A DNA stretch of 64,000 nt from Candidatus Bathyarchaeota archaeon (GTDB lineage Archaea; Thermoproteota; Bathyarchaeia; 40CM-2-53-6): NCBI GenBank assembly GCA_005881615.1, contig VBBR01000032.1:3183-67182 (forward strand), given 5' to 3'. Below the pieces are notes generated by a model, which had not been told where the DNA came from, did no database searches, and worked only from the letters and a program-made list of their open reading frames with translations. Below are positions 11,480-24,529 of the stretch, one piece after another (position 1 is the stretch's first letter; each line of letters begins with the position of its first letter). Made by a program: the position numbers and the translations under genes.

Positions 11480-11881
11480 TTGGAAAAGCTTCCCGAAGAG
11501 TTCAATGAGGATTTTGGTAGATTCAAGGCATTGGTAACCTTCGTTGAACCGGTCCGAAAGCAGCACTATAACGCCACGGGTCACAATATAGGAAGAACCT
11601 ATGGTTCCTTTGGAACCAGTGAACTCTCGCCAGGACACCACCACGGCAAGTCCGTCATCAGTACCCTAGAAATCCGTTGCGACGCCTGCGGTAACGAATC
11701 CCCCCAGTCAGAAAGAAGAGATTACCCAATTCACGTTCTGCTTCACGACCGAGAACAATGGGAAGTTTGTACCGGTCAATCCGGCTGTGAATGCCAAGGC
11801 TACGAGGGCAAGGGCGTTCGAATTGGCGTCAACCTTTCTCCTGAGAGAGTAGGGAAAAGGGAAAGAGCCCAAGCTCTCTGA
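11480..11881 (+). CDS. hypothetical Cys-rich protein (frame is open from 11291 with no canonical start before the TTG at 11480)
   Basis: C-terminal CDACGN...CTGQSGCECQGY suggests a metal-binding module. The upstream in-frame segment (QNQFQQTLRELESQVRKLLKEAAESG...) looks coiled-coil-like. ORF 11038..11340 in another frame may be part of the same gene disrupted by a frameshift. Confidence 0.3.
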   Translation: MEKLPEEFNEDFGRFKALVTFVEPVRKQHYNATGHNIGRTYGSFGTSELSPGHHHGKSVISTLEIRCDACGNESPQSERRDYPIHVLLHDREQWEVCTGQSGCECQGYEGKGVRIGVNLSPERVGKRERAQAL

Positions 11882-12155
11882 GTAGTTTTCGCATACCGCT
11901 CCACGTATAAGTCGAACTCTCGGTTTGCTGGCAAGTCACTCACTGATCATTTTTCGAACGTTCTTCCGAAAAATAGGCACGCTCTTCTCAAGAAGCGGTT
12001 TGGGAAGATTCATAATCCTTGTCGCCGTTGTGACCTAGGAAATCGCTATCCATGCAAATATGTATCAAAAGATAGAAATCGGATTGATGATTTGTCAATC
12101 CTTATTATTCGCGGCGACGAGTATCGACGATAAGGACGCTTTGACAAATGTAGAT

Positions 12156-13493
12156 ATGCGCCTCAGGGCTGATGCTGAACGACTTTCTCAGTCTTGGCTA
12201 TCAGACCGCTGGAATGGAATCCGTCGGCTTTACTCGGCCGAGGACGTCTGCAAGCTCCGGGGGACCGTCCATCCAGAGTGCACCTTGGCTCGACTCGGTG
12301 CGGAAAAGTTTGAGCGCCTCTTAAGGGACGAGGCGTACATTCCCACTCTCGGCGCTCTGACTGGGGTACAAGCTGTCCAGATGGTCCAGGCTGGGCTCAA
12401 GGCGATCTACATGAGCGGCTGGCAGGTAGCCGCAGACGCTAACCTTTCAGGCCAAACTTACCCTGACCAAAGTCTGTACCCGGCCAACAGTGTTCCGAAT
12501 CTAGTGAAGAGGATCAATCAGGCATTCCAGAGAGCCGACCAGATACAATTCGTGAGTGGCCAAGGGAGAATCGACTGGCTCGCACCGATCATTGCCGACG
12601 CAGAGGCAGGGTTCGGAGGCCCCCTCAACGCCTTCGAACTGATGAAAATGATGATAGAGGCTGGAGCGGCAGGAGTGCACTTCGAAGACCAGCTCGCTTC
12701 AGAGAAGAAATGCGGCCACCTAGGCGGAAAGGTCCTAGTTCCCACTCACCAGTTCATCAAGACTCTGATCGCGGCCCGACTTGCATCCGACATAATGGGC
12801 GTCCCAACATATCTCATCGCGCGAACAGATGCAATGGGAGCCAAACTCTTGTCGAGCGACTCCGATCCGAGAGACCTGCCTTACATGACCGGTGAGAGAA
12901 CCGCGGAGGGTTTCTACAGAATCAAGCCCGGCATAGAGGCTGCCATTGCGCGAGGTATGAGCTACGCGCCTTACGCTGACATCCTGTGGTGTGAGACTTC
13001 CACTCCGGACCTTGAGGAGGCGAGAAGGTTCGCAGATGCTGTTCACAGAGTGTTCCCTGGAAAGCTGCTAGCATACAATTGCTCGCCATCATTCAATTGG
13101 GAGAAACATCTGGATCCGGAGAGCATTCGGCGTTTTCAGAGAGAACTGGGCATGATGGGTTACAAGTTCCAGTTCGTCACATTGGCCGGTTTCCACAGTC
13201 TCTCAGTATCCATGTTCGAGCTGGCGAAACAGTACGCTGTTGAAGGAATGGCGGCATATGTTCGCGTCCAGAGGAAAGAGTTCGAAGCCGAACCTGCAGG
13301 CTACACCGCGGTGAAGCACCAGGCGTTTGTGGGAACAGAATACTTCGACGAGGTCGCAAACGTAATCTCGAGCGGAATGTCTTCGACCACAGCCATGAGC
13401 GAATCTACTGAAGCGGTCCAGTTCAAAGAACAATCCGTTCTGGTACCGCCTCCAGTTTCAAGCACCAAATCTGACCGAGACCGGAACCAGTAG
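12156..13493 (+). CDS. aceA: isocitrate lyase
   Basis: ...[13 protein letters not shown]...[11 protein letters not shown]...[20 protein letters not shown] carries the ICL signature K-K-C-G-H. Start placed at the Met of [14 protein letters not shown], where homology to ICL N-termini begins (ORF-track start 12060). Confidence 0.85.
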
Positions 13494-13495
13494 GT

Positions 13496-15109
13496 TTGCA
13501 CTTATCCGACGAAACGAAAAGCCAATCCGCGCTAGCACTGGAACCGCGAAGCCTCAAAATTACAGGGCCCCACATACAGGGTTTAGAAGAGATACTGACA
13601 CCTGACGCTTTAGCCTTTGTCGGAGATCTTGTTCTAGAATTTTCTCCACGTCTCGAGTCGCTACTGGGGAAGAGAATGATCGTTCACGAGAATCTCCGAA
13701 ACGGAGCACTTCCCGATTTTCTGGAAGAGACACGTGAAATTAGAACATCCGAATGGAAAGTCGGACCTATCCCACCTGATCTTCGACAAAGACGGGTAGA
13801 GATCACTGGCCCGGTCGACCGGAAGATGGTGATAAACGCGCTCAACTCTGGCGCTGATGTCTACATGGCCGATTTCGAGGACTCCCACTCGCCGACCTGG
13901 GAGGGAACCGTTCAGGGCCAAGCTAACCTTCGAGACGCGGTAGACCGGACCATTAGATACACTGGTCCTGACGGCCGAGAGTACAAGTTAGGTGAGAAAC
14001 TTGCAACTCTCATGGTGCGGCCTCGAGGCTTACACCTAATTGAGAAACATGTTCTAATCGAGTCCCGCCCGATTCCAGCTTTCCTCTTCGACTACGGCCT
14101 CTTTCTCTACCACAACGCCAATAAATTGATCAGGCAAGGGACCGGGCCGTACTTCTACATCCCGAAACTCGAGAGCTATCTAGAAGCCCGCCTCTGGAAC
14201 GACATCTTCGACTACTCTGAGAAAACCCTCAAGCTTCCGCGCGCCGGCATAAAGTGCAGTGTTCTAATCGAAACAATTCTAGCCGGATTCCAGATGGACG
14301 AAGTCCTCTACCAATTGCGCGAGAGGATTACAGCCCTCAACCTCGGCCGCTGGGACTACATCTTTAGCCTGATCAAATTCCTGGGCCACGACCCGAGATT
14401 TCTAGTTCCCGAAAGACCCCTCCTCCCCATGACAGCACCCTTCCTCAAGTCCAGCTCCGTTCTATTGGCCCAATCCTGCCACCGACGAGGCGCCTACGCA
14501 ATCGGAGGGATGGCTGCCCAGGTCCCCATCAAAGGCGACCCCCGTTCCCAGGAAGCCATCGACAAAGTAGTCGCTGATAAGACGCGGGAAGTTGCTGAGG
14601 GATACGAGGGCGCTTGGGTCGCCCATCCTGGTCTGGTACCAGTCGTGATGAATGTCTTCGACAGCCGTCCTGTAGAATCTAAGAACATTGAAGCGATTAC
14701 GGAGATAAGCCGCGAGGATCTCCTCAAAGTGCCCGAGCCAAAGATAAGCGAACAGTCTCTAAGAGCAAATGTCGCTGTCAGCCTAAAGTATCTAGAATCC
14801 TGGCTGGGAGGTCTCGGTTGCGTCGCAATCAACAACCTAATGGAAGACACTGCCACGGTGGAAATATGCAGAGCCCAGATCTGGCAGTGGATTCATCACT
14901 CCGCCAAGCTTCTTGACGGCCAGACGATTACGCGCGAGCTGTTCAGGAGAATTTTGAGGGAAGAAACGGCCAGAATAAGTGGAGGAGTCAAATCGCAAGC
15001 CGACGCAGAACCCAATTTCAAGATCGCAGGAGATCTGCTTGACTCACTTGTGACTAGTGATACCTTTTCCGAGTTCATCACGCTGCTCGCCTACAACTAT
15101 CTAAGCTGA
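13496..15109 (+). CDS. aceB: malate synthase A
   Basis: RRVEITGPVDRKMVINALNSGADVYMADFEDSHSPTW plus the length (537 aa) are typical of malate synthase A. Starts 3 nt after the aceA stop. Confidence 0.85.
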   Translation: MHLSDETKSQSALALEPRSLKITGPHIQGLEEILTPDALAFVGDLVLEFSPRLESLLGKRMIVHENLRNGALPDFLEETREIRTSEWKVGPIPPDLRQRRVEITGPVDRKMVINALNSGADVYMADFEDSHSPTWEGTVQGQANLRDAVDRTIRYTGPDGREYKLGEKLATLMVRPRGLHLIEKHVLIESRPIPAFLFDYGLFLYHNANKLIRQGTGPYFYIPKLESYLEARLWNDIFDYSEKTLKLPRAGIKCSVLIETILAGFQMDEVLYQLRERITALNLGRWDYIFSLIKFLGHDPRFLVPERPLLPMTAPFLKSSSVLLAQSCHRRGAYAIGGMAAQVPIKGDPRSQEAIDKVVADKTREVAEGYEGAWVAHPGLVPVVMNVFDSRPVESKNIEAITEISREDLLKVPEPKISEQSLRANVAVSLKYLESWLGGLGCVAINNLMEDTATVEICRAQIWQWIHHSAKLLDGQTITRELFRRILREETARISGGVKSQADAEPNFKIAGDLLDSLVTSDTFSEFITLLAYNYLS

Positions 15110-15387: not shown

Positions 15388-15699
15388 ATGAAGCTTGACC
15401 AAGGACCTTCCGGAGAGCTAACTGTCCTAGATTCAGGATACACAGACCAAGTCTTACTAGATTGTGTCAGCGAGGAGTATCTGCGGATCAAAGCGATCAT
15501 CTACAACTCGCTCAACGACATGAACAAGCTCTTCCTGGTCGACCGGGCGTTGTACACGAACAGTCCGGAGAGACCCCTCTTCATGGAGCTGACACCCCAA
15601 AACATGTCGGCCATGAGAAAGCCCCTAGTGATCTCGGAAGTGAAACTGTACAGCGTGGAGAGGACTTGGGGTCTATCCACACTTAGAATGATGAAGTAA
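15388..15699 (+). CDS. hypothetical protein
   Basis: 103-aa ORF without recognisable motifs; sits between aceB and albA. Confidence 0.3.
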   Translation: MKLDQGPSGELTVLDSGYTDQVLLDCVSEEYLRIKAIIYNSLNDMNKLFLVDRALYTNSPERPLFMELTPQNMSAMRKPLVISEVKLYSVERTWGLSTLRMMK

Positions 15700-15704
15700 G
15701 ATTT

Positions 15705-15989
15705 TCAGTCGTTTCTTGTCAGAACAATCTCTATGGTGGACACGTTCCGCTGTTCGTCTCCCTCGCCAAGCAACTCAGTCGCAATCTTAACTTCCTTGAT
15801 AACCAGCTTGCCCTGGAAGAACCGGTTCCTAACGACCTCGACAACATCCACGGCGTGGCTGATCGATTGACCACGGGCCTTGACCGTTATTTGTTTGGAA
15901 CCCATGTTGAAGTGCATCATGACAGCCGTAGCATAGGCCATCAAAGGCTTCTTTCCGATGAATACTACGTCCGGCGGAGCCCTGTTCAT
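15705..15989 (-). CDS. albA: Alba (Sso10b-type) DNA/RNA-binding protein
   Basis: MNRAPPDVVFIGKKPLMAYATAVMMHFNMGSKQITVKARGQSISHAVDVVEVVRNRF...VSTIEIVL is the canonical Alba fold sequence. The ORF-track version (to 16076) adds a spurious 29-aa basic leader. Confidence 0.8.
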   Translation of the reverse strand: MNRAPPDVVFIGKKPLMAYATAVMMHFNMGSKQITVKARGQSISHAVDVVEVVRNRFFQGKLVIKEVKIATELLGEGDEQRNVSTIEIVLTRND

Positions 15990-16223
15990 AGGACGTGCAG
16001 GATGTGTCTCAGGGGTTCTTTCCGGGGTTCGTTCTGTACGTGCGGGACGTTTCGGTTCAGTTTTTTCCACTTGCAAACACTAGCCTCTTTGAATCCTTAC
16101 GGTAACGAAGCGGGGAAGGTTCTCGCGACTTAAGCCTTTGCGCACCAACGGTTGCGGAAGAAGAAGAGAAAAAAAGAGAAATTGGGAATTTTGGAGGGGA
16201 GAACGTTCCCCCGAGACGTTGTT

Positions 16224-17354
16224 CTAGATAATGTCTCGGGTGAGAGCTTCTCGGAACTTGACCCTGCAGTCTTGGCACTGGAAGAGGCCGATCAACACGT
16301 TCTTCTTGGATTTGCCGCCTTTGAGTTCCCAGACCTTTGCAGCCTTGGGAACGTCAGCGCCGCACTTTGGACAGACAACCTTGTAGAACTGGCTTGGCAG
16401 CTGTAGGCTTGGCTGGGCCATGTCGGGTCCTGAGGGGATGCCTGGGACAGTTTCGGTGCCAGGGATTGTTGGTGAGATCTCGCTCTCTGTTGTTGCGATC
16501 GCTGAGGAAGCTTCGAGAGTAGGCATGTCATCGACGACTTTGACGACAAGCGCGTCAGCAACATCCTCAACGTATTCCTGAGCTGGTGCTGCATTGAAAG
16601 AATCTTCGACGATGGGTGTGCTTGCTTGAGTCAATGGAATAATTGGGGCTGCGATGGTATCCTCAGAGACTACGGATAGTGGTTGAGCCTGCTCTTGGAC
16701 CGGTGGGGTGAACACCGGAGTCGGAACGGAGACTGGAGCGCTAGTCGGAGCATTGTTTGTTTGAGGATTCGTCCAGGTTGAACCGTTACTGGATGGCTGG
16801 GGCGGGACGGGTGTTGTCGGGGGAGCCCATGGTCTCTCGGAGACAATGGAGCTCGCAGCGAACTTGACGCTTGGCGAAGTGGGCGTCGGTGCTGGTGCTT
16901 GTTGTGCTGGAGATGGTGTCTGTTGTGGAGCATTCCGTGCCCATTCCTCGATGAGAGTTCGTGGAGCCGGTGGATTGGCCTGTTTGAAGTCGGCTGGTGC
17001 TAGGGGTCTGGTCTCAATGTGGGTTAGGACCTCGATCATGTCTTTGATTTCTTCGATGCTGTGGAGGTTTCGCTGTAGGAGGCCCTTGAACTCTTCGCGT
17101 TGTCCGCGGTATTCTTGTTCGCTGACTTCACCGGTAACGTATTTCGTTTCTAGATTCAGCAGTCGTTGTGGTGTGCTGCCGATCTGGTCCTTTGTCTCTT
17201 TGAGGTGCTCGTTCAACGTGTATCCTAGCACGTTGATTCTGTCTTGGAGGTCTTGTGAGGCTCGTCCGTATTCCTCGTATATGGTCCGCATTTTTTCTTT
17301 GTAGCCGTTGATCTCGCTGATTAACTTCTCTAGAGTTAGATCGTTTAGTACCAT
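16224..17354 (-). CDS. coiled-coil / Pro-Thr-Ala-Gln-rich linker / C-terminal C4 zinc-ribbon protein
   Basis: 376 aa: N-terminal ~120-aa heptad-like segment, ~170-aa low-complexity P/T/A/Q-rich region, C-terminal KVVCPKCGADVPKAAKVWELKGGKSKKNVLIGLFQCQDCRVKF (CxxC-x19-CxxC). Divergently transcribed from the cdv array. Confidence 0.6.
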   Translation of the reverse strand: MVLNDLTLEKLISEINGYKEKMRTIYEEYGRASQDLQDRINVLGYTLNEHLKETKDQIGSTPQRLLNLETKYVTGEVSEQEYRGQREEFKGLLQRNLHSIEEIKDMIEVLTHIETRPLAPADFKQANPPAPRTLIEEWARNAPQQTPSPAQQAPAPTPTSPSVKFAASSIVSERPWAPPTTPVPPQPSSNGSTWTNPQTNNAPTSAPVSVPTPVFTPPVQEQAQPLSVVSEDTIAAPIIPLTQASTPIVEDSFNAAPAQEYVEDVADALVVKVVDDMPTLEASSAIATTESEISPTIPGTETVPGIPSGPDMAQPSLQLPSQFYKVVCPKCGADVPKAAKVWELKGGKSKKNVLIGLFQCQDCRVKFREALTRDII

Positions 17355-17689
17355 TTTTTTTCATCCTAGGGAAGCGACTTCTATGAGGTAAAATGGTAAA
17401 AGCGTTCAACCGCAAAAACCTCTGAAAACAGGGGTTGTAAACCCAGAATCAGCAATTTGGTAGAAACAAGACTGTCAATGATGCGCGCTGAATTGACCTG
17501 TTTTTAACTAGCAATGCTAAACTGGGATTGGGGAAAACACAACTTCCTACCAATTTTCTGACACCGCATATAAACCAAAACCGTCCTGTGGCCCGCACAA
17601 CATCCCCGCCGAATATCTGTTGACAACATGCAACCTATTGCCTGAGCTAGAATTTCTCTAGCCCGTATACTACGAAACCATACCCTTAC

Positions 17690-18394
17690 GTGTCAAGAAC
17701 CCACTTGGAACGCGTCCCAAGTAAACCAGCTTTCAAGATAGAAATGTCATACAAGTCCATGAAGAATTGGGACCGAGAGCAGAGAGAGCCTTTGCTCTCG
17801 AAGGTCACCGATCGCATCCACCACCAAGAACCGCTCAAGGAGAAGATCTCACAGGTCGTCTACAAGCTCAAAGTACAACAGAATAGGCTTGAAGGAGCCA
17901 ACCTCAAGACACAGCAACACGACAAGTCACTGTTCGACAAGTGCGTCCAAGCCCAGATGTCCAAAGACACCATGCGCAGCGCAATGTACGCCAACGAGAT
18001 CGCGGAGATCCGGAAAATCGCCAAAGTTACACTCAGAAGCGAACTAGCACTCGAACAAGTCGTACTCCGACTCGAAACAATCCAGGAATTCGGCGACGTC
18101 GCAGCCATGATGGGCCCAGTCGCAGGAGTAGTACACCAGATCAAGAACCAGATCGCGGGAGTCATCCCACAAGTCGGCTACGAACTAGGCGAGATCTCCG
18201 ACACACTAAACAGCGTAGTCATGGAAGTTGGCGAAGCAACGGGACAAGGCTATGATCTGGAGGCATCAGGTCCAGAAGCCTCGAAGATCATTTCTGAAGC
18301 CAACACCATAGCTGAGACACGGATGCGTGAGAAGTTCCCGGAGTTACCCTCTCCAACCGCCACTGCAGAACACGAGATAGTGATTCCAAGGTAG
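17690..18394 (+). CDS. ESCRT-III / Snf7-family protein (CdvB paralog)
   Basis: Snf7-like helical core (...ANEIAEIRKIAKVTLRSELALEQVVLRLETIQEFGDVAAMMGPVAGVVHQIKNQIAGVIP...), closely related to the ORFs at 19196 and 22831. No C-terminal winged helix. Confidence 0.75.
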   Translation: MSRTHLERVPSKPAFKIEMSYKSMKNWDREQREPLLSKVTDRIHHQEPLKEKISQVVYKLKVQQNRLEGANLKTQQHDKSLFDKCVQAQMSKDTMRSAMYANEIAEIRKIAKVTLRSELALEQVVLRLETIQEFGDVAAMMGPVAGVVHQIKNQIAGVIPQVGYELGEISDTLNSVVMEVGEATGQGYDLEASGPEASKIISEANTIAETRMREKFPELPSPTATAEHEIVIPR

Positions 18395-18429
18395 GAGTAA
18401 CTCCGACAACATTTTTTTGGTGCAAAATC

Positions 18430-19143
18430 ATGCCAATAACACTTGAACAAGTCCGACGATTCCTCGGCAGAACCCTCCAAGACCCCTACGGCAGAGCCTT
18501 CGGCAAAGTCGTAGGCATCTCCGCCAACCTCAGAGACGAGGTAACCGGAGTAGGAATAGAGGAAGGCAACGGAGAATTCCTCCAATGCCCCGGCGACAGA
18601 GTCACCATAACAGGTGACACTCTCGTCCTGGCACCGGCCTGGAAGGTGGAAGCAGAGGAGTTCCGGAAAGAATTCGACATCGTAACTAGACGCCTCCGAG
18701 CCCTTGACGAGCTGTTCAGTGTCGGCGACATCCAGAAGGACGTCTACGAGGATCTAAGGAAACAGCACGAGGACGCGATCAACGAGCTGAAAGGCAAGAG
18801 AAAGGAGATAATCGACACTCTGGCTCAACGAACCAGCGTTCTCAACACGCAGTTGCGACAGTTACAGACACACCTCGCAGGCAACAAGATGTTGCATGCG
18901 TCCGGCGAGTTCGACGATATGAATTACAAACAGGCTAGCGACGCTATCGACAGCGGTCTCGTCCGCGCGATGGCCGAGAAGAAGGACGTTGAGTCAATCT
19001 ACAGTTACCTACAGAAGCTCGACGCGGCCCAAGCGCCCCCCGCTGCACAACAGCCCCAACCCATAGCTCCAACCCCTCAACCAACCACAACAACCTCCCC
19101 CGCGAGAGACCCTGTTCTAGTACTTCACGTGAGGGAGACTTAG
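18430..19143 (+). CDS. cdvA: CdvA (PRC-barrel + coiled-coil cell-division protein)
   Basis: N-terminal PRC-barrel-like segment (LGRTLQDPYGRAFGKVVGI...GVGIEEGNGEFL...), a long coiled coil, and a Pro/Gln-rich tail. Located between two cdvB-type genes. Confidence 0.75.
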   Translation: MPITLEQVRRFLGRTLQDPYGRAFGKVVGISANLRDEVTGVGIEEGNGEFLQCPGDRVTITGDTLVLAPAWKVEAEEFRKEFDIVTRRLRALDELFSVGDIQKDVYEDLRKQHEDAINELKGKRKEIIDTLAQRTSVLNTQLRQLQTHLAGNKMLHASGEFDDMNYKQASDAIDSGLVRAMAEKKDVESIYSYLQKLDAAQAPPAAQQPQPIAPTPQPTTTTSPARDPVLVLHVRET

Positions 19144-19195
19144 GAGGATTCAAGGGCTGTTCCGAAAATTCGAGGAGAAAGTCCATCCTATTCCG

Positions 19196-19960
19196 TTGAA
19201 AGAGCGCATAGCGCAAGCTTTGTTCCGACTCGGATCACAGAAAGAAAAACTAGAGCACATGTCCGCTAGGCTCCAGCAACGCGACAAAGAGATGTTTCAG
19301 CGATGCATCGGCGCTCAGCTCTCCAAGGATCCCTCTCACGCAGCTCTCTACGCCAACGAGTGTGCTGAGATTCGGAAAATGGCTCATCTTACGCTCAGCA
19401 GTGAACTGGCCCTCGAACGTGTCATCCTCCGAATGCAGACGGTCGAAGAGTTCGGCGACATTATGGCCCAGATCGCACCGGTCATCGGAGTCGTACGCGA
19501 GACACGCGGTAGAATTGCAGGTGTCATTCCCGAAGTGGCCAACGAGCTTGGCGAGGTCAACAACATGCTAAGTGACATGAGCATGGAAACCGGCCAGGTC
19601 GGCGAAGACCAGGGCTTCGACATGAGCGCCTCAAGCGCCGAAGCACGCAAGGTTCTCGAAGAATCCAGCGCCATTGCATCCCAAGAAATGAAAGAACGAT
19701 TCCCGGAGCTGCCAATGCCTGAGACCCGCCAACCAGTTCGAGAAGCCGCAACACGCGCCCCAGAACAAAGAATCCCCATCGCCATAACCACAAACGGCTC
19801 AGAAGAAGCTCCCCTGGAAGACAGGCTCCTAAGCTACATCAAATCACACAACGGAGAACTCAGCCTCAACAACTGCTCCGCAGAGCTCCTGGTCCCGAGC
19901 GACGACATCAGGCGTTCCCTACAACGGCTCAAGGATGACGGAAAGATAGTCATGGACTAG
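19196..19960 (+). CDS. cdvB: CdvB (ESCRT-III with C-terminal winged-helix-like domain)
   Basis: Snf7 core plus a C-terminal ...LSYIKSHNGELSLNNCSAELLVPSDDIRRSLQRLKDDGKIVMD winged-helix-like module, as in CdvB proteins that bind CdvA. Confidence 0.8.
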   Translation: MKERIAQALFRLGSQKEKLEHMSARLQQRDKEMFQRCIGAQLSKDPSHAALYANECAEIRKMAHLTLSSELALERVILRMQTVEEFGDIMAQIAPVIGVVRETRGRIAGVIPEVANELGEVNNMLSDMSMETGQVGEDQGFDMSASSAEARKVLEESSAIASQEMKERFPELPMPETRQPVREAATRAPEQRIPIAITTNGSEEAPLEDRLLSYIKSHNGELSLNNCSAELLVPSDDIRRSLQRLKDDGKIVMD

Positions 19961-20255
19961 ACGGGAGATAAGTGCTCCCGTCCAAGCCCTTCAGTATCAC
20001 AAGAGGGGACAAGTAATCTCAGCATCCGAAGAACTGGAATCGCTTGCAGTAAAATACGCGAAAGAAGCTATCGAGCTGGAGAGAAAAGGCTCCAAACGGC
20101 TTGCCGCAACAAAATACCAGCGAGCCATCGAAGTCCTCCTCAAACTATGCTCATTATACCCAGCCGCGGTTCAAAACAAGGTCTACACGGAACACGTAGA
20201 AGCATACAAGAAACGAATCCAAGAACTCCAGTCAGACGAACCAATAACTCATTCT

Positions 20256-21161
20256 ATGGATTCGACTGAGACCCGTGAGTCCAAGACCATCAAGCTCGAT
20301 CAGTGGGTCCTGACGGAGAAACCGGACATCAGCTGGAGCGACATCGCCGACCTTGAGAAGCCGAAACGAGCGATCGAAGAATCAATAATCTTCCCCGTTC
20401 GAAGACCGGATCTCTTCCCTCTTGGCTGGCCTCGAGGAATACTCTTCTTCGGACCCCCAGGTTGCGGAAAAACCCTACTCGCTGCCGCCATTGCGAGCGA
20501 GATCAAGGGGATGTTCTTCTGTGCGGACGCCGCTTCCCTAATGTCAAAGTGGCTTGGAGAATCCGAACGAAACGTCTCCCAACTCTTCACAAAAGCAAGG
20601 GAAGTGTCTGAGAACGGGCAACCAGCCATCGTTTTCATCGACGAAATAGACTCGTTAATGGGCGTCCGGGGGGAAGAGGTCGGCGGAGAAGTCCGCGTCC
20701 GAAACCAGTTCCTCAAAGAGATGGATGGCATCCTCGACAAGAACAAGAAATTCCACGTCTACCTCATCGGTGCAACAAACAAGCCGTGGGTCCTGGACGA
20801 GCCGTTCATCCGACGCTTCCAGAAGAGAATCTACGTTCCACTACCAGACGTCAAAGCCCGCATGGACATGTTCCAGATCTATGCCCAGAATCTGAAGTTC
20901 CAGAACAACGTGGACTTCGCTGAGCTAGCGCGAAGGACTGAAGGCTACTCTGGAGGAGATATTCGCGATCTGTTCCAGTCCACCCAGATCAAGGTGGTCC
21001 GCGACTTCTTCCAGCGTGGTGCCGCTAACGATCTCAACGCTATTCCAGACCCGATTACTATGGAGGATTTCGAGACCATCATCGTGGGCCGACGGCCAAG
21101 CGTCTCGCAGAACATCATCAAACGATACTTCGACTGGGACGAATCGTTCAAGGCATCATAG
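20256..21161 (+). CDS. cdvC: CdvC / Vps4-type AAA+ ATPase (ATPase core from the first canonical ATG; MIT domain encoded in-frame upstream, 19959-20255)
   Basis: Walker A LFFGPPGCGKTLLAAAIA, Walker B IVFIDEIDSL, a SRH region and a Vps4 C-terminal helix. Upstream in the same frame with no ATG/GTG/TTG: ...ISASEELESLAVKYAKEAIELERKGSKRLAATKYQRAIEVLLKLCSLYPAAVQNKVYTEHVEAYKKRIQEL, a clear MIT domain. Confidence 0.85.
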   Translation: MDSTETRESKTIKLDQWVLTEKPDISWSDIADLEKPKRAIEESIIFPVRRPDLFPLGWPRGILFFGPPGCGKTLLAAAIASEIKGMFFCADAASLMSKWLGESERNVSQLFTKAREVSENGQPAIVFIDEIDSLMGVRGEEVGGEVRVRNQFLKEMDGILDKNKKFHVYLIGATNKPWVLDEPFIRRFQKRIYVPLPDVKARMDMFQIYAQNLKFQNNVDFAELARRTEGYSGGDIRDLFQSTQIKVVRDFFQRGAANDLNAIPDPITMEDFETIIVGRRPSVSQNIIKRYFDWDESFKAS

Positions 21162-21174
21162 AGGATGAAAAGAC

Positions 21175-21645
21175 GTGAACCTTGACGGAACTGACCTACG
21201 CATCCTCGCGGAGCTCGTGGAGAACTCCAAACAATCCTATGTTGAGATAGGCCGCAAACTCGCCCTCCATCCCAACGTCATCGCCTACAGAGTCAACCGA
21301 CTAGAAGACGCCCACATTATCCGCGAATACACAACACTCATCGACTTCGGAAAGCTCGGCCTCTTAGAACAAGTCATCGTCGCCGCAAACTTCCCCAGCA
21401 GCCCCTCCAGAGAAGACATTCTGAAACAGATATGCGAGATCCCAGAAACCCTCAACGTCATCAGCTCCCTCGGAACCCCAGAAGGACTCGTCTTCATAGT
21501 CGCCCGCAACAAAGAGGTCGTAAACGCGGTCCTGTCAAAGCTCCGTTCAATGAACCTTGACATCGATTTCGCATCCTCAGTCATCAGGACCTATGACGAG
21601 GGACGCTTGGGAATGTTCCTCCGGTCCATGGCAGGCCCAGAATAG
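21175..21645 (+). CDS. Lrp/AsnC-family transcriptional regulator
   Basis: LDGTDLRILAELVENSKQSYVEIGRKLALHPNVIAYRVNRLEDAHII (HTH) plus a C-terminal RAM-like domain. Confidence 0.8.
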   Translation: MNLDGTDLRILAELVENSKQSYVEIGRKLALHPNVIAYRVNRLEDAHIIREYTTLIDFGKLGLLEQVIVAANFPSSPSREDILKQICEIPETLNVISSLGTPEGLVFIVARNKEVVNAVLSKLRSMNLDIDFASSVIRTYDEGRLGMFLRSMAGPE

Positions 21646-21659
21646 AAGGTCGATCCTAA

Positions 21660-22127
21660 TTGGAAAAGCCATCCTGGACCCCAATTGTCCTATCCGGCGC
21701 CATCCCACGAGAAGCCACGGACCTACTCGCAATTCTAGTGATTGGCATAGTAGCCCTCCAGGCGTCTCTTGCCGCAATAGGTCCAACAATCCCCGAGTCA
21801 CGACTCTGGCTCTCTCTCCTAGTTGTTCCACCGACATGTGCCCTAGCGTCTGTATCTACTACGACAAGACGGACGAAGGAGGAATTAGCCCTCTTCGCCT
21901 ACGGAGGCTCCGGCTGGCAGATTCTCCTACGCTACTTCATCAGAGGAGCGATCATTGCTCTGCTCGCATTCTCTCCAGTCCTGCTTCAAGAATTCCTCAC
22001 AACCACTCCGATGCTCGAACTAGCTACAACAGTGATCATTCTGTTGTTCGCAGGAGGTCTGTTCTATTCGCTACCCAGTCTTCGCCGAATACGATCCTCA
22101 TCGTTTGTTGAGCACTACAAGAGTTAG
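21660..22127 (+). CDS. small 4-TM membrane protein with FtsX/MacB-permease-like C-terminal signature
   Basis: RRTKEELALFAYGGSGWQILLRYFIRGAIIALLA resembles the FtsX-domain consensus (R.eiailkAlGas...il.qfl.E.l.l.l). Lacks the large extracytoplasmic domain of full-length FtsX/MacB. Sits 6 nt upstream of the ABC ATPase. Confidence 0.5.
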   Translation: MEKPSWTPIVLSGAIPREATDLLAILVIGIVALQASLAAIGPTIPESRLWLSLLVVPPTCALASVSTTTRRTKEELALFAYGGSGWQILLRYFIRGAIIALLAFSPVLLQEFLTTTPMLELATTVIILLFAGGLFYSLPSLRRIRSSSFVEHYKS

Positions 22128-22132
22128 CAAAC

Positions 22133-22828
22133 ATGCCATCTGTGATCGAAACAAGGTCAGTGGTCGTCGAATACCCTTCAGTCAAAGGGGTTCTGCGGCT
22201 CTACGAGCAAGGCGTTTCCTTGAAAGTGGATCAGGGAGACTTCCTCGCCGTCCTCGGCGGGTCTGGCTGGGGAAAATCAACACTCGTCAACGTAGTCTTG
22301 GGACTGGAGAAACCCATTCATGGGTCGGTCAGCTTTCGCGACCACGACGTCACACGGGAATCATTCGTAAAACGGTGTGCCTTGGTTAAGACAGCCGCCG
22401 TGTTTCAGCGTCCAACCGCGCTCCCGCAGATGACAGTTTCACAGAACCTGCACCTAGCCCTCTCGCTAGCGGGGGTCCCGAGAAAGGATCGAGATGAAAG
22501 GATCAAAGAAGCCCTCGCATTTTTTGGATTAGACAAGATCGAACGATCATACCCTGACGGGCTCAGCGCTGGCCAGCGAAGGCGAATCGATCTCGCAAGA
22601 GCTTTGGCCGTCAAACCCGAACTACTGGTGATCGACGAGCCGACGGGCGACTTAGATGGGTCCGCTACAAACCTGCTAATCCCTCTTCTAAGGGGACTAA
22701 ACCGGAACCAGGGAACAACAATTTTCATGACCACAGCACTGCCTCGTCAAGCGTCGCAAGCAAAGCACCAGGTGCATCTCAGACCGCCTTTGTACCTCAC
22801 TCCGGAAAACAGGATGATCGGAGACTAA
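22133..22828 (+). CDS. ABC transporter ATP-binding protein (FtsE/MacB/LolD-like)
   Basis: Walker A GGSGWGKST, signature LSAGQRRR, Walker B LLVIDEPTGDLD. Confidence 0.8.
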   Translation: MPSVIETRSVVVEYPSVKGVLRLYEQGVSLKVDQGDFLAVLGGSGWGKSTLVNVVLGLEKPIHGSVSFRDHDVTRESFVKRCALVKTAAVFQRPTALPQMTVSQNLHLALSLAGVPRKDRDERIKEALAFFGLDKIERSYPDGLSAGQRRRIDLARALAVKPELLVIDEPTGDLDGSATNLLIPLLRGLNRNQGTTIFMTTALPRQASQAKHQVHLRPPLYLTPENRMIGD

Positions 22829-22830
22829 CA

Positions 22831-23439
22831 ATGTTCCGCGACAATCCCTCATTAACCGACAGAATCCGGGAAGCGATCAAGCCGACACCGATGAAACAGC
22901 GGATCCAGTTCGCTTCCCACAAACTCCGTCTACAAACTACAAGGCTGGAGCGAAGCATTACCCAGATGGAATCACGAGACCAGACACTTCGAGATAAGTG
23001 CACCAAAGCACTGGAGGCGCGAGATACTCAAACCGCGACCGTTTTCGCAAACGAATGCGTCCAAATTCGAAAACTCATCAAGACATCCCTCCGAAGCCAG
23101 ATCTGCCTCGAACAAGCACTACTCCGCCTCGAGACGGTGGAACAGTTCGGCGACCTGGTCCACAGCATGGGCTCAGTCAAAGGACTCCTCGGCGCAGTAA
23201 GAGGCGAGCTAGAAGGCAAACTTCCCGAAATTTCAACAGGTATCGGCGATGTCGAAGACTCGCTAGAGAATCTCACGATGGAAATTGGGGAAGCAGTTGA
23301 CTCGGATGGGATGTCCATCCCGGTCAATGATGAATCCGCTCACATCTTGAAGGAGGCGGATCTTATGGCCGAGCAGAAGATGAAAGAGAAATTCCCTGAA
23401 ATTCCTCAGATAGCGAATCCGGCTCATCGAGTGAGGTAG
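22831..23439 (+). CDS. ESCRT-III / Snf7-family protein (third CdvB paralog, no winged helix)
   Basis: ...TVFANECVQIRKLIKTSLRSQICLEQALLRLETVEQFGDLVHSMGSVKGLLGAVRGELEGKLPEI... is colinear with the ORFs at 17690 and 19196. Confidence 0.75.
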   Translation: MFRDNPSLTDRIREAIKPTPMKQRIQFASHKLRLQTTRLERSITQMESRDQTLRDKCTKALEARDTQTATVFANECVQIRKLIKTSLRSQICLEQALLRLETVEQFGDLVHSMGSVKGLLGAVRGELEGKLPEISTGIGDVEDSLENLTMEIGEAVDSDGMSIPVNDESAHILKEADLMAEQKMKEKFPEIPQIANPAHRVR

Positions 23440-23557
23440 AATCTATCTGCTCTCTCCTGAGCTGGAGACGAAAGCTCTCCTCGGACGAAGTGTCAACGAC
23501 ATCTACGGCAGACTGCTAGGACGGGTAATCGGCATCGAGCGCAACCCCTTCGGAGAG

Positions 23558-24064
23558 ATGGAAGGAGTCCAGATAGAAGCGACAGGCGGAATTATTCTCA
23601 CAGCCAAAGCCAGGCAAATGGCCCTCACCCCGAAAACAATCACGATATCCCCGGAGTGGAAGCTTGAGTCCGAGGACATCATCTCCGAACTGACACTGTT
23701 GAGGAAGAGGATTGGTGCCCTGGAATCGTTGAAAGATTCGAGGGAGATTGACGGAGAAATCTATTCGGAGCTTCTCGAGTCGCAGAAGGCCGGCTACCTG
23801 GACAAGGTGAAACTGGCGAGCGCCCTGGTCGGCTCAATGCGATCTAGACTAGCCGAAATCACTGGACAAATCACGAGCCTGACAAGATATCTTGTCAATG
23901 CGAAGCTTGATCACAAGAGTGGGGAGCTTGACGAGGATTCTCTGAAACTCGCGCAGGGCTCTATCGAGCCGAGTCTTCGGCCTTTGATCGCGGAGAGAAA
24001 CGATCTTTCCCTGTCGATCAAAGTTGTCGAGCAGGTCCTGCCATCAAAGGTCAGCATTAACTAG
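23558..24064 (+). CDS. CdvA-like paralog (PRC-barrel + coiled coil); coding frame actually opens at 23435 with no canonical start before the ATG at 23558
   Basis: The in-frame upstream segment SPELETKALLGRSVNDIYGRLLGRVIGIERNPFGEMEGVQIE aligns with the CdvA N-terminus (MPITLEQVRRFLGRTLQDPYGRAFGKVVGISANLRDEVTGVGIE). The downstream part aligns with the CdvA PRC/coiled-coil region (ISPEWKLESEDI / LAPAWKVEAEEF). Confidence 0.6.
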   Translation: MEGVQIEATGGIILTAKARQMALTPKTITISPEWKLESEDIISELTLLRKRIGALESLKDSREIDGEIYSELLESQKAGYLDKVKLASALVGSMRSRLAEITGQITSLTRYLVNAKLDHKSGELDEDSLKLAQGSIEPSLRPLIAERNDLSLSIKVVEQVLPSKVSIN

Positions 24065-24190: not shown

Positions 24191-24529
24191 ATGACCAGTA
24201 AAGCGAGAAAGAACAAGCCTACAAGGATCGAAAAGGTCCTGCCCTTGGACAAGGTTATCGGGTTCTTCCGTCAACGATTCCACGATCCCTATCTGAATCC
24301 GGAAGCTGAGTTGAGCTTCGTGGATTTTCAAACCGGCTTCCCGGAAGTTCCGCGCGAGGACTTGGAGGAAGGATTGTCTCACTGGGTTATGAGACCCGGC
24401 GCAAGAGTACTCTCAACGAAAACAACTGCTATTGATGGACTTGAACTGCAAGTGTGGTACATTCATGGGCTTCACGAGGAACACGCGGACTTGGAGGATT
24501 CAATGAGCCGGAGCCCCATCCAAGCCTAG
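24191..24529 (+). CDS. hypothetical protein
   Basis: 112-aa ORF, no recognisable motif. Confidence 0.3.
   Translation: MTSKARKNKPTRIEKVLPLDKVIGFFRQRFHDPYLNPEAELSFVDFQTGFPEVPREDLEEGLSHWVMRPGARVLSTKTTAIDGLELQVWYIHGLHEEHADLEDSMSRSPIQA

Follow-up and report, generated by a model that had tools for sequence, protein, structure and literature searches.

The window is a 64-kb stretch of DNA from an uncultured soil archaeon of the class Bathyarchaeia. ORF analysis of the window identified nine genes on the + strand between positions 17690 and 24064 with intergenic gaps of 2-55 nt. In order, these genes are a first cdvB (cdvB-a), cdvA, a cdvB with a winged helix (cdvB(wH)), cdvC, the genes for an Lrp-family regulator, a mini-FtsX-like permease and an ABC ATPase, a third cdvB (cdvB-c), and cdvA2; with the start codons revised as described below, the gaps are 35, 13, 55, 13, 14, 5, 2 and 7 nt. 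Divergently oriented genes 5' of the array encode a third CdvA-like protein with a coiled coil and a Zn ribbon, referred to as CCZn, and then Alba. A sequence-only reading had described an array of co-directional cdv genes with extra components, and this description was confirmed: all eleven ORFs were found at or near the coordinates that it gave, and profile searches bore out all gene identities read from the raw sequence, with the CdvA, CdvA-like and Snf7 ORFs all matching the expected families. The identical CdvA protein recurs in independent samples, on 23 contigs in total, with unchanged neighbours, and the gene order is retained where CdvC identity drops to 57-66%; therefore, we rejected chance juxtaposition and assembly artefact.

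cdvB-a (17690..18394) encodes a CdvB1/B2-like ESCRT-III protein (NF041005, E 1.5e-66) that has no winged helix and, by motif alignment, a MIM2-like C-terminus, FPELP; its start codon is GTG, while ATG is used in L007, L014 and L015. cdvA (18430..19143; PF18822, 73 bits; NF041007, E 2.6e-29, model positions 2-196 of 235) encodes a PRC barrel, a coiled-coil hairpin, a Pro-rich linker and the C-terminal beta-strand motif DPVLVLHVRET, which is presumed to serve as the E3B peptide in binding to the winged helix of CdvB. A linker and a hydrophobic-strand C-terminus are found in the CdvA tails of most related loci, and the role of this tail in Sulfolobus has been described (Caspi and Dekker 2018, PMC5840170). 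cdvB(wH) (19157..19960) matched CdvB2 in the PDB (9s97, E 1.2e-42) and aligned with NF041008 to model position 259 of 260 and, therefore, includes the C-terminal winged helix. cdvC (20016..21161; NF041006, E 2.4e-154, model positions 2-370 of 370) encodes a Vps4 protein with MIT, AAA+ and Vps4_C domains, and the motif FPE(L/I)P ends all three CdvB proteins. Altogether, these profile and motif matches showed that the core proteins possess the features required by the canonical Cdv mechanism.

The array is tightly spaced only if cdvB(wH), cdvC and cdvA2 use non-canonical start codons; thus, the tight spacing claimed earlier stands with starts at CTG 19157, ATC 20016 and CTG 23447 but not with the starts in the original list of ORFs. 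cdvB(wH) probably starts at CTG 19157, which is GTG in three sister species and follows TAGGAGG at a distance of 10 nt; initiation at TTG 19196, the first canonical start, would remove the conserved N-terminal LFRKFEEKVHPIP. Similarly, cdvA2 probably starts at CTG 23447, which corresponds to ATG, TTG or GTG in relatives. The cdvC frame contains no ATG, GTG or TTG from the in-frame stop at 19947 to 20256, and ATC 20016 is the probable start. The codon at this position is ATG in 32 relatives, ATC in the clade of the window (17 sequences including the window), and ATT and ATA in one locus each of the same clade; moreover, a GGAGG-like motif is located 7-9 nt upstream of this position. Public gene calls and lists of ORFs give CdvA2 as 168 aa and CdvC from ATG 20256 as a protein of 301 aa without the MIT domain, the latter apparently because the ATC start is not recognised. 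A GC-rich RNA hairpin with an 8-bp stem (19960..19982, + strand; -14.4 kcal/mol, z = -5.1) overlaps the final base of the cdvB(wH) stop codon, and relatives have a hairpin at the equivalent place with other stem sequences (GGCGAGG, GGACGAG).

In addition to the core, the locus encodes a third ESCRT-III protein and two further CdvA-type proteins. cdvB-c (22831..23439; PF03357, 38.6 bits with a gathering threshold of 27.3; NF041005, E 5.6e-44) encodes a protein without a winged helix that ends in FPEIP. cdvA2 (23447..24064, 205 aa; NF041007, E 3.9e-19) encodes a full-length CdvA paralogue that aligned without gaps to CdvA residues 7-187 in BLASTP (28% identity, E 6e-28), and the shorter ORF 23558-24064 already matched the CdvA coiled coil with 36.9 bits; CdvA2 has the PRC barrel and the coiled coil and lacks the linker and the E3B-like, CdvB-binding tail. 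CCZn (16224..17354, - strand, 376 aa; PF18822, 32 bits, above the gathering threshold) consists of an N-terminal CdvA-type helical hairpin without a PRC barrel, a Pro/Thr-rich disordered linker of ~200 aa in which an E3B-like strand motif, EDVADALVVKVVDD (residues 263-276), is conserved, and a C-terminal Zn ribbon. Thus, the locus encodes three CdvA-type proteins rather than the two claimed earlier, while the claim of extra CdvA proteins as such stands. In the AF2 model of CCZn, helices span residues 3-74 and 79-112 (pLDDT ~90), residues 123-323 are disordered, and beta strands lie at 340-371. Among CCZn proteins that are 62-95% identical overall, nearly all columns of the Zn-ribbon region 320-375 are invariant, with variation at 321, 338 and 374. 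We found 268 CCZn homologues, and all those bearing organism names are from Bathyarchaeia.

The mini-FtsX-like permease (21660..22127, 155 aa), which is identified by Pfam matches of orthologues, motif alignment and fold, has a short N-terminal helix, four TM helices with a TM1-TM2 loop of ~8 aa, and no extracytoplasmic domain. The window protein itself had no Pfam match; its positional orthologues in L023, L059 and L029 matched PF02687 with 38.8, 40.1 and 27 bits, respectively (gathering threshold 25.5), and its motifs align with theirs. The AF2 model (pLDDT 81) had FtsX (8x61_C; probability 1.0, TMq 0.56) as its top Foldseek match followed by LolC/E, MacB, YtrF and HrtB, all with weak E-values (0.03-1). 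Two observations on this protein were less favourable: hhalign against the canonical FtsX group gave an E-value of 0.099, which counts against the explanation preferred below, and a profile search of 1.84 billion proteins with the mini-FtsX family did not reach FtsX proteins. In total, the syntenic orthologues and the predicted fold, which best matches FtsX, LolC and MacB, uphold the original mini-FtsX call. The family is small, with 187 and 85 matches in 5.8 billion proteins and 22 cluster representatives in 1.84 billion; three independent contigs carrying it all have the order cdvC-Lrp-TM-ABC-Snf7-CdvA, and searches of both protein sets found no member outside a cdv context.

The ABC ATPase (22133..22828; PF00005, 103 bits) retains Walker A, the Q-loop, the LSAGQ signature and Walker B including the catalytic Glu. 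In place of the H-loop histidine, the window has Ala and relatives have Asn; the histidine is absent from all 22 aligned sequences (window and 21 related loci), which does not by itself prove that the ATPase is inactive. The best NCBIfam model was FtsE with 133 bits, below the cutoff of 265, and the full-length PDB matches were YtrE, LolD, BceA, FtsE and MacB. Therefore, of the earlier label 'FtsE-like', the identification as an ABC ATPase holds and the specificity is lost, as LolD, MacB and YtrE fit equally well. By contrast with true FtsEX, which is defined by an extracytoplasmic domain and the H-loop histidine, the pair encoded here has neither.

Upstream of cdvB-a, ATATAAA (17568..17574, + strand) is, by its position, a candidate TATA box of the cdv operon promoter; it is kept as (C/T)ATATAAACCAAAA in ten of eleven aligned sequences (window and nine related loci) and is degenerate in L023. 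The palindrome TGTGGcccgCACA (17587..17599) lies ~25 nt 3' of the TATA centre, at the expected transcription start, has a single exact match within the window and is preserved in the alignment down to L023. A second, degenerate copy, TGGGGaaaaCACA (17529..17541), lies 58 nt away on the 5' side of the TATA box and is kept in the close clade only. TGTG-N5-7-CACA is present 5' of the first cdvB in 26 of 41 Lrp-bearing loci vs 1 of 27 Lrp-less loci; the sole exception, L022, is truncated inside cdvC, and none of the 26 complete Lrp-less loci has the motif. Based on this co-occurrence and the alignment, the palindrome is a candidate operator for the operon-encoded Lrp/AsnC-family regulator (21175..21645; HTH_AsnC, 41 bits; HTH_24, 41 bits), which is a candidate autoregulator of the cdv operon. 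The motif is absent from the region scanned in 15 of the 41 Lrp-bearing loci, which counts against our preferred explanation.

In a comparative set of 80 species-level genomes, the core cdvB-cdvA-cdvB(wH)-cdvC was present in 58 of 62 loci and is the standard arrangement across the class Bathyarchaeia. Lrp together with a third cdvB was found in one clade (7 loci), and the full Lrp-miniFtsX-ABC-cdvB-cdvA2 array in 17 of 52 informative loci; the order Lrp-TM-ABC-cdvB-cdvA2 is constant from 99% to 57% CdvC identity. The distribution of the extension is nested on the CdvC tree and limited to a sub-clade consisting mostly of soil MAGs. In the preferred explanation, the array grew stepwise: Lrp and the third cdvB came first, then mini-FtsX/ABC and cdvA2, and then the divergent Zn-ribbon CdvA-like gene. 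One locus with the ABC module, L059, falls apart from the other ABC-bearing loci in the NJ tree, which counts against the preferred explanation. The sole earlier mention of the enlarged array is a single supplementary sentence (Ravi et al. 2024, Text S2.2), and additional CdvA-like proteins have been recorded in Bathyarchaea (Makarova et al. 2024). In total, we conclude that the enlarged operon is a real, conserved variant of the known Cdv system. The synteny comparison qualifies its novelty, as the four-gene core is ordinary for the class and the full array the norm in the sub-clade; as judged from gene order, the enlarged array is a lineage trait rather than a one-off. Moreover, the conserved order, the restriction of mini-FtsX to the cdv context and the co-occurrence of palindrome and Lrp support the proposal that the Cdv module is self-contained and co-regulated and includes additional components.

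Altogether, we consider it likely that the locus is a Cdv (CdvA/ESCRT-III/Vps4) membrane-scission operon in a lineage-specific enlarged form, and propose a working model. By analogy with Sulfolobus, CdvA would form a ring template on the membrane and recruit CdvB(wH) by its tail, the CdvB paralogues without a winged helix would form the constricting polymer, and CdvC would take the polymers apart via MIT-MIM2 contacts. The Lrp-family protein would bind TGTG-N5-7-CACA over the transcription start and the second site 5' of the TATA box, and this binding would set the timing of expression of the whole array. Mini-FtsX and the ABC ATPase would form a minimal MacB/FtsX-type (FtsX-fold) complex; because the extracytoplasmic domain and the H-loop histidine are lacking, a slow membrane switch or anchor gated by ATP is likelier than a transporter. 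Together with the adjacent tail-less CdvA2 and CdvB-c, this complex may act as a second membrane-attached CdvA/ESCRT-III sub-assembly. Finally, the weak non-AUG starts of cdvB(wH), cdvC and cdvA2 and the hairpin between cdvB(wH) and cdvC probably tune relative dosage.

Bathyarchaeia have been reported to have FtsZ homologues besides CdvABC (PMC9723716), and Cdv may, therefore, not be the principal divisome. The reported FtsZ homologues speak for a second explanation, which we regard as unlikely though far from negligible: not cytokinesis but membrane maintenance, the repair of envelope stress or the budding of vesicles would be the task of the extension (Lrp, mini-FtsX/ABC, cdvB-c and cdvA2), or even of the entire locus. 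The FtsX-type ABC pair would then be an envelope sensor/effector comparable to bacterial BceAB and YtrEF, membrane would be patched or budded by ESCRT-III together with CdvA2, and division would be left to FtsZ. In line with this explanation, TACK ESCRT systems also produce extracellular vesicles (Makarova et al. 2024), two of the ATPases of known structure nearest in sequence, YtrE and BceA, are components of envelope-stress systems, and the extension occurs only in a largely soil-derived sub-clade. However, the extension lies directly 3' of cdvC in the same tight array behind a promoter with a candidate operator, no stress-sensor domain (kinase, large extracytoplasmic loop) is present, and the 64-kb window, to which the search was confined, contains no FtsZ signature. 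We deem it improbable that Lrp and the ABC pair are housekeeping genes, a small transporter and its regulator, that landed by chance between duplicated cdv genes and stay there by operon inertia without a functional tie to Cdv. Both ABC ATPases and Lrp regulators are ubiquitous, the ATPase gave no match specific to one family and the TM protein of the window has no family recognisable by sequence; however, the constant order across the divergence of CdvC, the confinement of the TM family to the cdv context, the cdv genes flanking the module on both sides with gaps of 2-14 nt, and the co-occurrence of the Lrp gene with the palindrome in the cdv promoter argue against it. Pseudogenisation, sequencing error or a programmed cdvB(wH)-cdvC frameshift in a partly decayed array would fit the 102 codons without ATG, GTG or TTG 5' of 20256 and a cdvC frame that opens 11 nt ahead of the cdvB(wH) stop codon, but is very improbable given that the MIT region is conserved at the protein level in all relatives, the codon aligned with the ATG of the relatives is a one-base variant (ATC, ATT, ATA, GTT) behind a conserved GGAGG-like motif, identical sequence is present on many independent contigs, and no slippery site is evident while ATG-bearing relatives share the layout.

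In the preferred reading as an enlarged Cdv operon, a single transcript is predicted; against this, transcription could end in part at a T7 oligo-T run (18414-18420) in the cdvB-a/cdvA gap. The Alba DNA/RNA-binding protein encoded beyond CCZn (15705..16076, - strand, 123 aa; NF003088, 102.8 bits with a cutoff of 90; PF01918, 53 bits) has a basic N-terminal extension of ~35 aa, and its gene adjoins the cdv locus in >25 Bathyarchaeia loci.

The gene list that the sequence-only reading had drawn up from the raw sequence was borne out by an ORF listing together with Pfam and NCBIfam searches. The first gene of the plus-strand array, cdvB-a (17690-18394), and the last but one, cdvB-c (22831-23439), code for ESCRT-III paralogues without a winged helix, and cdvB(wH), which ends at 19960, codes for one with a C-terminal winged helix. 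All three products match the CdvB1/B2 model NF041005 (E 1.5e-66 for cdvB-a, 1.4e-53 and 5.6e-44 for the other two), and among them cdvB-c alone exceeded the Pfam Snf7 gathering threshold (38.6 bits). CdvB(wH) was aligned to position 259 of 260 of NF041008, and its best solved relative is CdvB2 (PDB 9s97; E 1.2e-42). Each of the three paralogues ends in FPE(L/I)P, in which F, P, E and the final P are invariant, and this motif would act as a MIM2, the C-terminal motif that binds MIT domains. The cdvA product (18430-19143) scored 73 bits with PF18822 (gathering threshold 30) and aligned with positions 2-196 of 235 of NF041007 (E 2.6e-29; the equivalog cutoff of 350 lies above its score); this alignment takes in the PRC barrel, which lies at the N-terminus of the protein and precedes the CdvA coiled-coil domain. 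CdvC, whose gene ends at 21161, matched NF041006 over positions 2-370 of 370 (513.7 bits, below the cutoff of 650; E 2.4e-154) and contains MIT, AAA and Vps4_C domains (26.7, 124 and 21.5 bits). The NCBIfam scores of the Cdv proteins are thus highly significant yet all below the equivalog cutoffs, which presumably were calibrated on cultured Crenarchaeota.

Downstream of cdvC lie the genes for an Lrp/AsnC regulator (21175-21645), for a 155-aa membrane protein that we refer to as mini-FtsX (21660-22127) on the basis of its predicted fold and positional orthologues, and for an ABC ATPase (22133-22828) that starts 5 nt downstream of the mini-FtsX gene; cdvB-c and the CdvA paralogue gene cdvA2, which ends at 24064, complete the array. 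The regulator exceeded the gathering thresholds of HTH_AsnC (41.2 bits) and HTH_24 (41.3 bits), but its match to the RAM domain (AsnC_trans_reg) was weak (16.5 bits; threshold 25). Two genes lie divergently upstream on the minus strand: one codes for an Alba-domain protein (NF003088, 102.8 bits, cutoff 90; TIGR00285, 93.2 bits, cutoff 88.25) and the other for CCZn (16224-17354), a 376-aa protein whose 32-bit match to the CdvA coiled-coil domain exceeds the gathering threshold and which has a terminal Zn ribbon. From the raw sequence, three ESCRT-III and two CdvA-type proteins had been counted; the former number stands, whereas the PF18822/CdvA-domain matches raise the latter to three.

Three genes of the array, cdvC, cdvB(wH) and cdvA2, have no canonical start codon at the beginning indicated by the alignments. 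In cdvC, the MIT domain is coded in frame 5' of the first ATG (20256), and the frame contains no ATG, GTG or TTG between this codon and the in-frame stop at 19947. An alignment of this region with its counterparts in 80 related genomes shows which codon directly precedes the conserved SASEELE: it is ATG in 32 of the aligned relatives, TTG in six and GTG in three, whereas the window clade has ATC (17 sequences, that of the window among them) or ATT or ATA (one locus each), and two sister species have GTT. A GGAGG-like motif is always present 7-9 nt upstream. Only if translation begins at ATC 20016-20018 is the MIT domain encoded, and cdvC appears to start at this codon. An alternative start at ATA 19968 was rejected because this codon is unconserved even among close relatives. 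A +1 frameshift that fuses cdvB(wH) and cdvC was also considered and rejected, because a conserved Shine-Dalgarno-like motif and a near-cognate codon at the position of the ATG of the relatives argue for separate initiation of cdvC.

By the same type of comparison, cdvB(wH) appears to start at CTG 19157-19159, a codon that is CTG in 20 of 20 close-clade sequences (the window and 19 loci), whereas three sister species have GTG at this position. A TAGGAGG motif that includes part of the stop codon of cdvA is found 10 nt 5' of the CTG, and a start at TTG 19196 would drop a conserved N-terminal segment. Similarly, CTG 23447-23449, which matches ATG, TTG or GTG in relatives, appears to be the start of cdvA2, since the first ATG (23558) would remove half of the PRC barrel. 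If the three genes begin at these codons, the eight gaps within the array measure 35, 13, 55, 13, 14, 5, 2 and 7 nt. Moreover, it follows from the ATC and CTG starts that public gene calls truncate CdvC and CdvA2: in all six relatives compared, CdvC is annotated with 301 aa and no MIT domain and CdvA2 with 168 aa, and CdvB(wH) is probably truncated as well. Surveys in which the presence or completeness of Cdv systems is scored from such gene calls will be misled.

For the comparison of synteny, we scanned one genome per GTDB species for CdvC and annotated the resulting 80 loci, nearly all of which are labelled Bathyarchaeota or Bathyarchaeia, by phmmer with the window proteins as queries. The closest loci are from meadow-soil MAGs with 97-99% identity, and some soil MAGs were deposited as 'Crenarchaeota archaeon 13_1_40CM...'. 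The order cdvB-cdvA-cdvB(wH)-cdvC was found in 58 of the 62 loci with enough upstream sequence; in the remaining 4/62, cdvA between two cdvB genes was not detectable by phmmer. Classes downstream of cdvC were scored on the 52 loci with at least 3.3 kb after this gene: 24 had nothing related by phmmer, three had Lrp only, seven had Lrp and a third cdvB, one had cdvB only, and 17 had the ABC gene, cdvB and cdvA2. In a neighbour-joining tree of CdvC, these locus types are nested: a large extension-free group is followed by a clade with Lrp, and the loci with the full extension fall inside the latter; one locus, L059, is an outlier on this tree. The CCZn gene is limited to the soil clade and locus L023. 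In addition, 23 contigs, which come from independent samples, code for a CdvA identical to that of the window, and the gene neighbours were the same in all six places shown. Together, the synteny counts and the nested tree indicate that the four-gene core is the ordinary Bathyarchaeial arrangement. We conclude that this core has been elaborated into the nine-gene array in a conserved and lineage-specific manner. The array recognised by the sequence-only reading is therefore real, and it represents an enlargement of a known system.

The three CdvA-type proteins differ in architecture. CdvA2, read from CTG 23447, has 205 aa and aligns without gaps to residues 7-187 of CdvA (28% identity, E 6e-28), and it therefore comprises the PRC barrel as well as the coiled coil. 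CdvA2 ends after the coiled coil without a tail, whereas in CdvA proper this part is followed by a Pro-rich linker and then by DPVLVLHVRET, a short hydrophobic strand; in most related loci, CdvA likewise ends in a linker and such a strand. According to Caspi and Dekker (2018, PMC5840170), the winged helix of Sulfolobus CdvB is "broken", and the E3B strand at the C-terminus of CdvA completes it. The C-terminal winged helix is retained in CdvB(wH); an E3B-type contact between CdvA and CdvB is putative here. In L059, the downstream CdvA2 (11456-12160) keeps a linker and a strand-like tail, EPIVLQLEG, unlike CdvA2 of the window clade; hence, the second CdvA is not tail-less in every locus.

In the AlphaFold2 model of CCZn, a CdvA-like helical hairpin is confidently predicted for residues 3-112; about 200 residues, more than half of the model, are disordered, and the Zn ribbon comprises about 35 C-terminal residues. 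Residues 320-375, the Zn-ribbon region, are almost all invariant among proteins that are 62-95% identical overall, a conservation which implies that this region has a strongly constrained partner, e.g. nucleic acid or protein. The linker contains a conserved internal motif, EDVADALVVKVVDD (residues 263-276), that resembles the C-terminal strand of CdvA. Thus, the CdvA features are divided among the three CdvA-type proteins, with barrel, coiled coil and tail in CdvA, barrel and coiled coil in CdvA2, and coiled coil, tail-like motif and Zn ribbon in CCZn.

The assignment of the 155-aa membrane protein to the FtsX type is based on positional orthology, motif alignment and predicted fold, and not on a sequence match of the window protein itself, which had no Pfam match at E up to 10 and no NCBIfam match. 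Its counterparts between the Lrp and ABC genes in distant loci have 160-170 aa, and the orthologues in L023, L059 and L029 match the FtsX permease family PF02687 with 38.8, 40.1 and 27.0 bits (gathering threshold 25.5). A comparison of the window-type and this canonical group by hhalign gave a weak match confined to the signature helix (E 0.099); in a joint alignment, this helix, R-x-x-E-hydrophobic-A-hydrophobic-hydrophobic-x-x-x-G, and a C-terminal basic motif are in register in both groups. AlphaFold2 predicted a short N-terminal helix and four long helices for the window protein (pLDDT 81, pTM 0.75). In a Foldseek search of the PDB with this model, the top match was FtsX (8x61_C; probability 1.0, TMq 0.56), and the top 50 matches were mostly FtsX, LolC/E, MacB, YtrF and HrtB with weak E-values of 0.03-1. 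Thus, the model has the four-helix FtsX/MacB fold, and the gene is adjacent to that of an ABC ATPase. The large extracytoplasmic domain found between TM1 and TM2 of FtsX is absent from the 155-aa protein, in the model of which about 8 residues separate TM1 (19-38) from TM2 (47-65); the canonical relatives, of 163-170 aa, have PF02687 only, with no match to PF12704 (MacB_PCD) on record.

The mini-FtsX family is small: among 5.8 billion proteins, its two sequence groups had 187 and 85 matches, and from 1.84 billion cluster representatives an HMM search returned 22 proteins, none of which was recognisable as FtsX. Moreover, the order cdvC-Lrp-TM-ABC-Snf7-CdvA was found on all three independent contigs examined. 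This gene order and the restriction of the family to the cdv context strongly suggest that the ABC pair is functionally linked to Cdv, and they support the earlier reading of the locus as a Cdv module with extra components.

The ATPase encoded next to mini-FtsX is LolD/FtsE/MacB/YtrE-like without a specific match to FtsE. The FtsE model TIGR02673 was the best NCBIfam match, but with 133.4 bits it lies below the equivalog cutoff of 264.85, and LolD, MacB, DarD and others scored nearly as high. Walker A, the Q-loop, the signature motif (LSAGQ in the window, LS(F/V/S)GE in more distant members) and Walker B with its glutamate are all kept. By contrast, the switch histidine of the H-loop is absent from 22 of 22 aligned ATPases (the window and 21 related loci); it is replaced by Ala in the window clade and by Asn elsewhere, and in the window the region (residues ~202-207) reads FMTTAL. 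The H-loop histidine is required for efficient hydrolysis in ABC ATPases. Given its loss and the missing extracytoplasmic domain, the mini-FtsX/ABC pair may function as a slow ATP-gated switch or anchor rather than as a transporter.

In bacteria, FtsEX/MacB, LolCDE, YtrEF, BceAB and HrtBA likewise combine an FtsX-fold four-helix permease with a LolD/FtsE/MacB-like ATPase. FtsEX is a type VII ABC component of the divisome, and the Bathyarchaeial pair is likewise encoded by adjacent genes within a cell-division cluster; as in the FtsEX/MacB group, it is a candidate ATP-driven membrane switch and not a pore-type transporter. The Bathyarchaeial pair differs from this group in that it lacks the PCD/ECD domain, the H-loop histidine and an FtsE-level score. 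To our knowledge, the PCD/ECD domain is the output module of all characterised members of the FtsEX/MacB/LolCDE group. Moreover, the partner machinery would be ESCRT-III/CdvA in the Bathyarchaeion, and it is FtsZ/FtsA with peptidoglycan hydrolases in the case of FtsEX. A search for the FtsZ signature (GGGTGS/TG), which covered the 64-kb window and bears on this part of the genome only, found no match.

The divergent intergenic region upstream of the array comprises 335 nt and contains a candidate TATA box, ATATAAA (17568-17574), that is conserved in 10 of 11 aligned sequences. A palindrome, TGTGGcccgCACA (17587-17599), is centred 22 nt 3' of the TATA centre, i.e. 19 nt past the TATA end, and thus close to the expected archaeal transcription start; a degenerate second copy (17529-17541) lies 58 nt upstream of the first. 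This promoter block can still be discerned in a genome whose CdvC is 66% identical. TGTG-N5-7-CACA was found upstream of the first cdvB in 26 of 41 Lrp-bearing loci compared with one of 27 loci without Lrp, and in this single Lrp-less locus the contig ends inside cdvC. Based on this co-occurrence, the Lrp protein encoded in the array is the obvious candidate for binding the palindrome. Scans for sigma-70 promoters and intrinsic terminators gave counts at background, their models not being meaningful for an archaeon.

Two signals were identified within the array. Oligo-T tracts can terminate archaeal transcription; a T7 run (18414-18420) is located in the gap from cdvB-a to cdvA and may in part uncouple the first gene from the other eight. 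Further downstream, an 8-bp GC-rich RNA hairpin (19960-19982; -14.4 kcal/mol, z = -5.1) includes the final base of the stop codon of cdvB(wH). Relatives have a hairpin with other stem sequences at the same site, and each variant folds on its own; the support consists of this separate folding and not of covariation counts, as MAFFT left the differing stems out of register. The hairpin may act in processing, stability or attenuation and so reduce cdvC in relation to cdvB, and the T7 run, the hairpin and the weak start codons could plausibly be devices that set subunit ratios.

In Sulfolobales, cdvABC form an operon, and cdvB1, cdvB2 and cdvB3 are dispersed (Lindas 2008; Samson 2008, 2011; review PMC5840170). 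The window and Sulfolobales share the CdvA, CdvB and CdvC families, with cdvA, cdvB(wH) and cdvC adjacent in both, as well as a CdvA with PRC barrel, coiled coil and C-terminal strand, a single winged-helix CdvB, MIM2-like CdvB C-termini and an MIT domain in CdvC. The window differs in that a second cdvB ahead of cdvA and a third after cdvC are part of the same array, in that there are three CdvA-type proteins, and in that the array includes genes for a transcription factor and for an FtsX-type ABC pair. In Sulfolobales, the dedicated cell-cycle transcription factors aCcr1 (RHH; PMC9976892), CCTF1 and TFB2 control cdv genes. The concept of a small DNA-binding protein that recognises a short palindrome near the start of cdv promoters would be common to these factors and the window Lrp; however, the latter belongs to the Lrp/AsnC family and is encoded inside its putative target operon.

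A minimal CdvABC system in TACK archaea has been described by Makarova et al. (2024, mBio, PMC10936438), as have extra CdvA-like proteins in Bathyarchaea, which carry a fused Glu-rich sequence and whose genes are not part of the cdv locus. The core of CdvA, CdvB and CdvC is common to those Bathyarchaeial loci and the window, whereas in the window two extra CdvA-like genes, one coding for a tail-less and one for a Zn-ribbon protein, are located in or beside the locus; by term search of the main text and part of the supplements of PMC10936438, no Lrp, ABC or FtsX component was found to be linked to a cdv locus. CCZn resembles the Thermoproteales arCOG03733 proteins (Zn ribbon and CdvA-like), which have arCOG03734 paralogues (Makarova et al. 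2024), in that CdvA-like helices are joined to a Zn ribbon by a long linker and the gene lies beside another CdvA-like gene. This likeness is one of architecture: the Zn ribbon is C-terminal in CCZn and N-terminal in arCOG03733, and the CCZn linker, unlike those of arCOG03733/arCOG03734, is Pro/Thr-rich with an E3B-like motif. Bathyarchaeia are reported to belong to the lineages that encode a full CdvABC and also FtsZ homologues (Kohtz et al. 2022).

The enlarged array has already been glimpsed in the literature. One sentence in Text S2.2 of Ravi et al. (2024, mSystems, PMC11237479) is on such a locus, and the arrangement, as far as the retrieved passages go, is very probably the same as that of the window. 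In these passages, the TM protein is not called FtsX-type, the second and third CdvA are unmentioned, and an Lrp regulator or operator, the loss of the H-loop, the distribution and the start codons do not figure. Similarly, full-text literature searches returned no paper in which the TM protein is identified as FtsX-type and no account of the link between Lrp and the palindrome, of the H-loop loss, of a tail-less CdvA2 or of the start codons.

What we propose for the mechanism of the ABC pair, and for a role of the locus in division as opposed to other membrane remodelling in this uncultured lineage, we infer. One comprehensive reading, which we regard as tentative and rather unlikely in its entirety, is that mini-FtsX/ABC would be a dedicated, hydrolysis-impaired ATP switch in the membrane that anchors or gates a second CdvA2/ESCRT-III polymer, i.e. 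an archaeal, ESCRT-based counterpart of FtsEX. On this reading, the operon would encode its own Lrp autoregulator, subunit ratios would be set by weak non-AUG starts and an intercistronic hairpin, and the locus as a whole would form a division cassette that is self-contained and self-timed. If this reading were true, FtsX-type ABC modules would have been recruited independently to the FtsZ and ESCRT division machineries. Cdv/ESCRT-III division has been studied almost solely in Sulfolobales. With regard to the attachment of the polymers to the membrane and their regulation there in other TACK archaea, the locus offers candidates for additional components with a genetic link to the core: an ABC switch with a fold that bacteria use in their own divisome, a tail-less CdvA, CCZn, and a transcription factor for which an operator is predicted. 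Each of these components is a small soluble or four-helix protein, so that reconstitution in vitro or expression in Sulfolobus is feasible.

The array is flanked by small ORFs of 112 aa (24191-24529) and 103 aa (15388-15699). The former, which is co-directional, lies 126 nt downstream of cdvA2 and is retained in the close clade, had no Pfam or NCBIfam match, and the counterparts of the latter in gene calls of relatives have no Pfam match on record. Two genes of the glyoxylate shunt, which code for isocitrate lyase and malate synthase, lie side by side at 12060-15109 just upstream of Alba and the cdv genes and are conserved in close relatives, an unexpected metabolic trait for a Bathyarchaeion beside its division locus. 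Finally, Alba lies directly upstream of the cdv locus, in either orientation, in many Bathyarchaeia without the CCZn gene (among loci L028-L061, e.g. L034 5006-5380 and L041 5125-5466), which suggests that the linkage between Alba and cdv is conserved.
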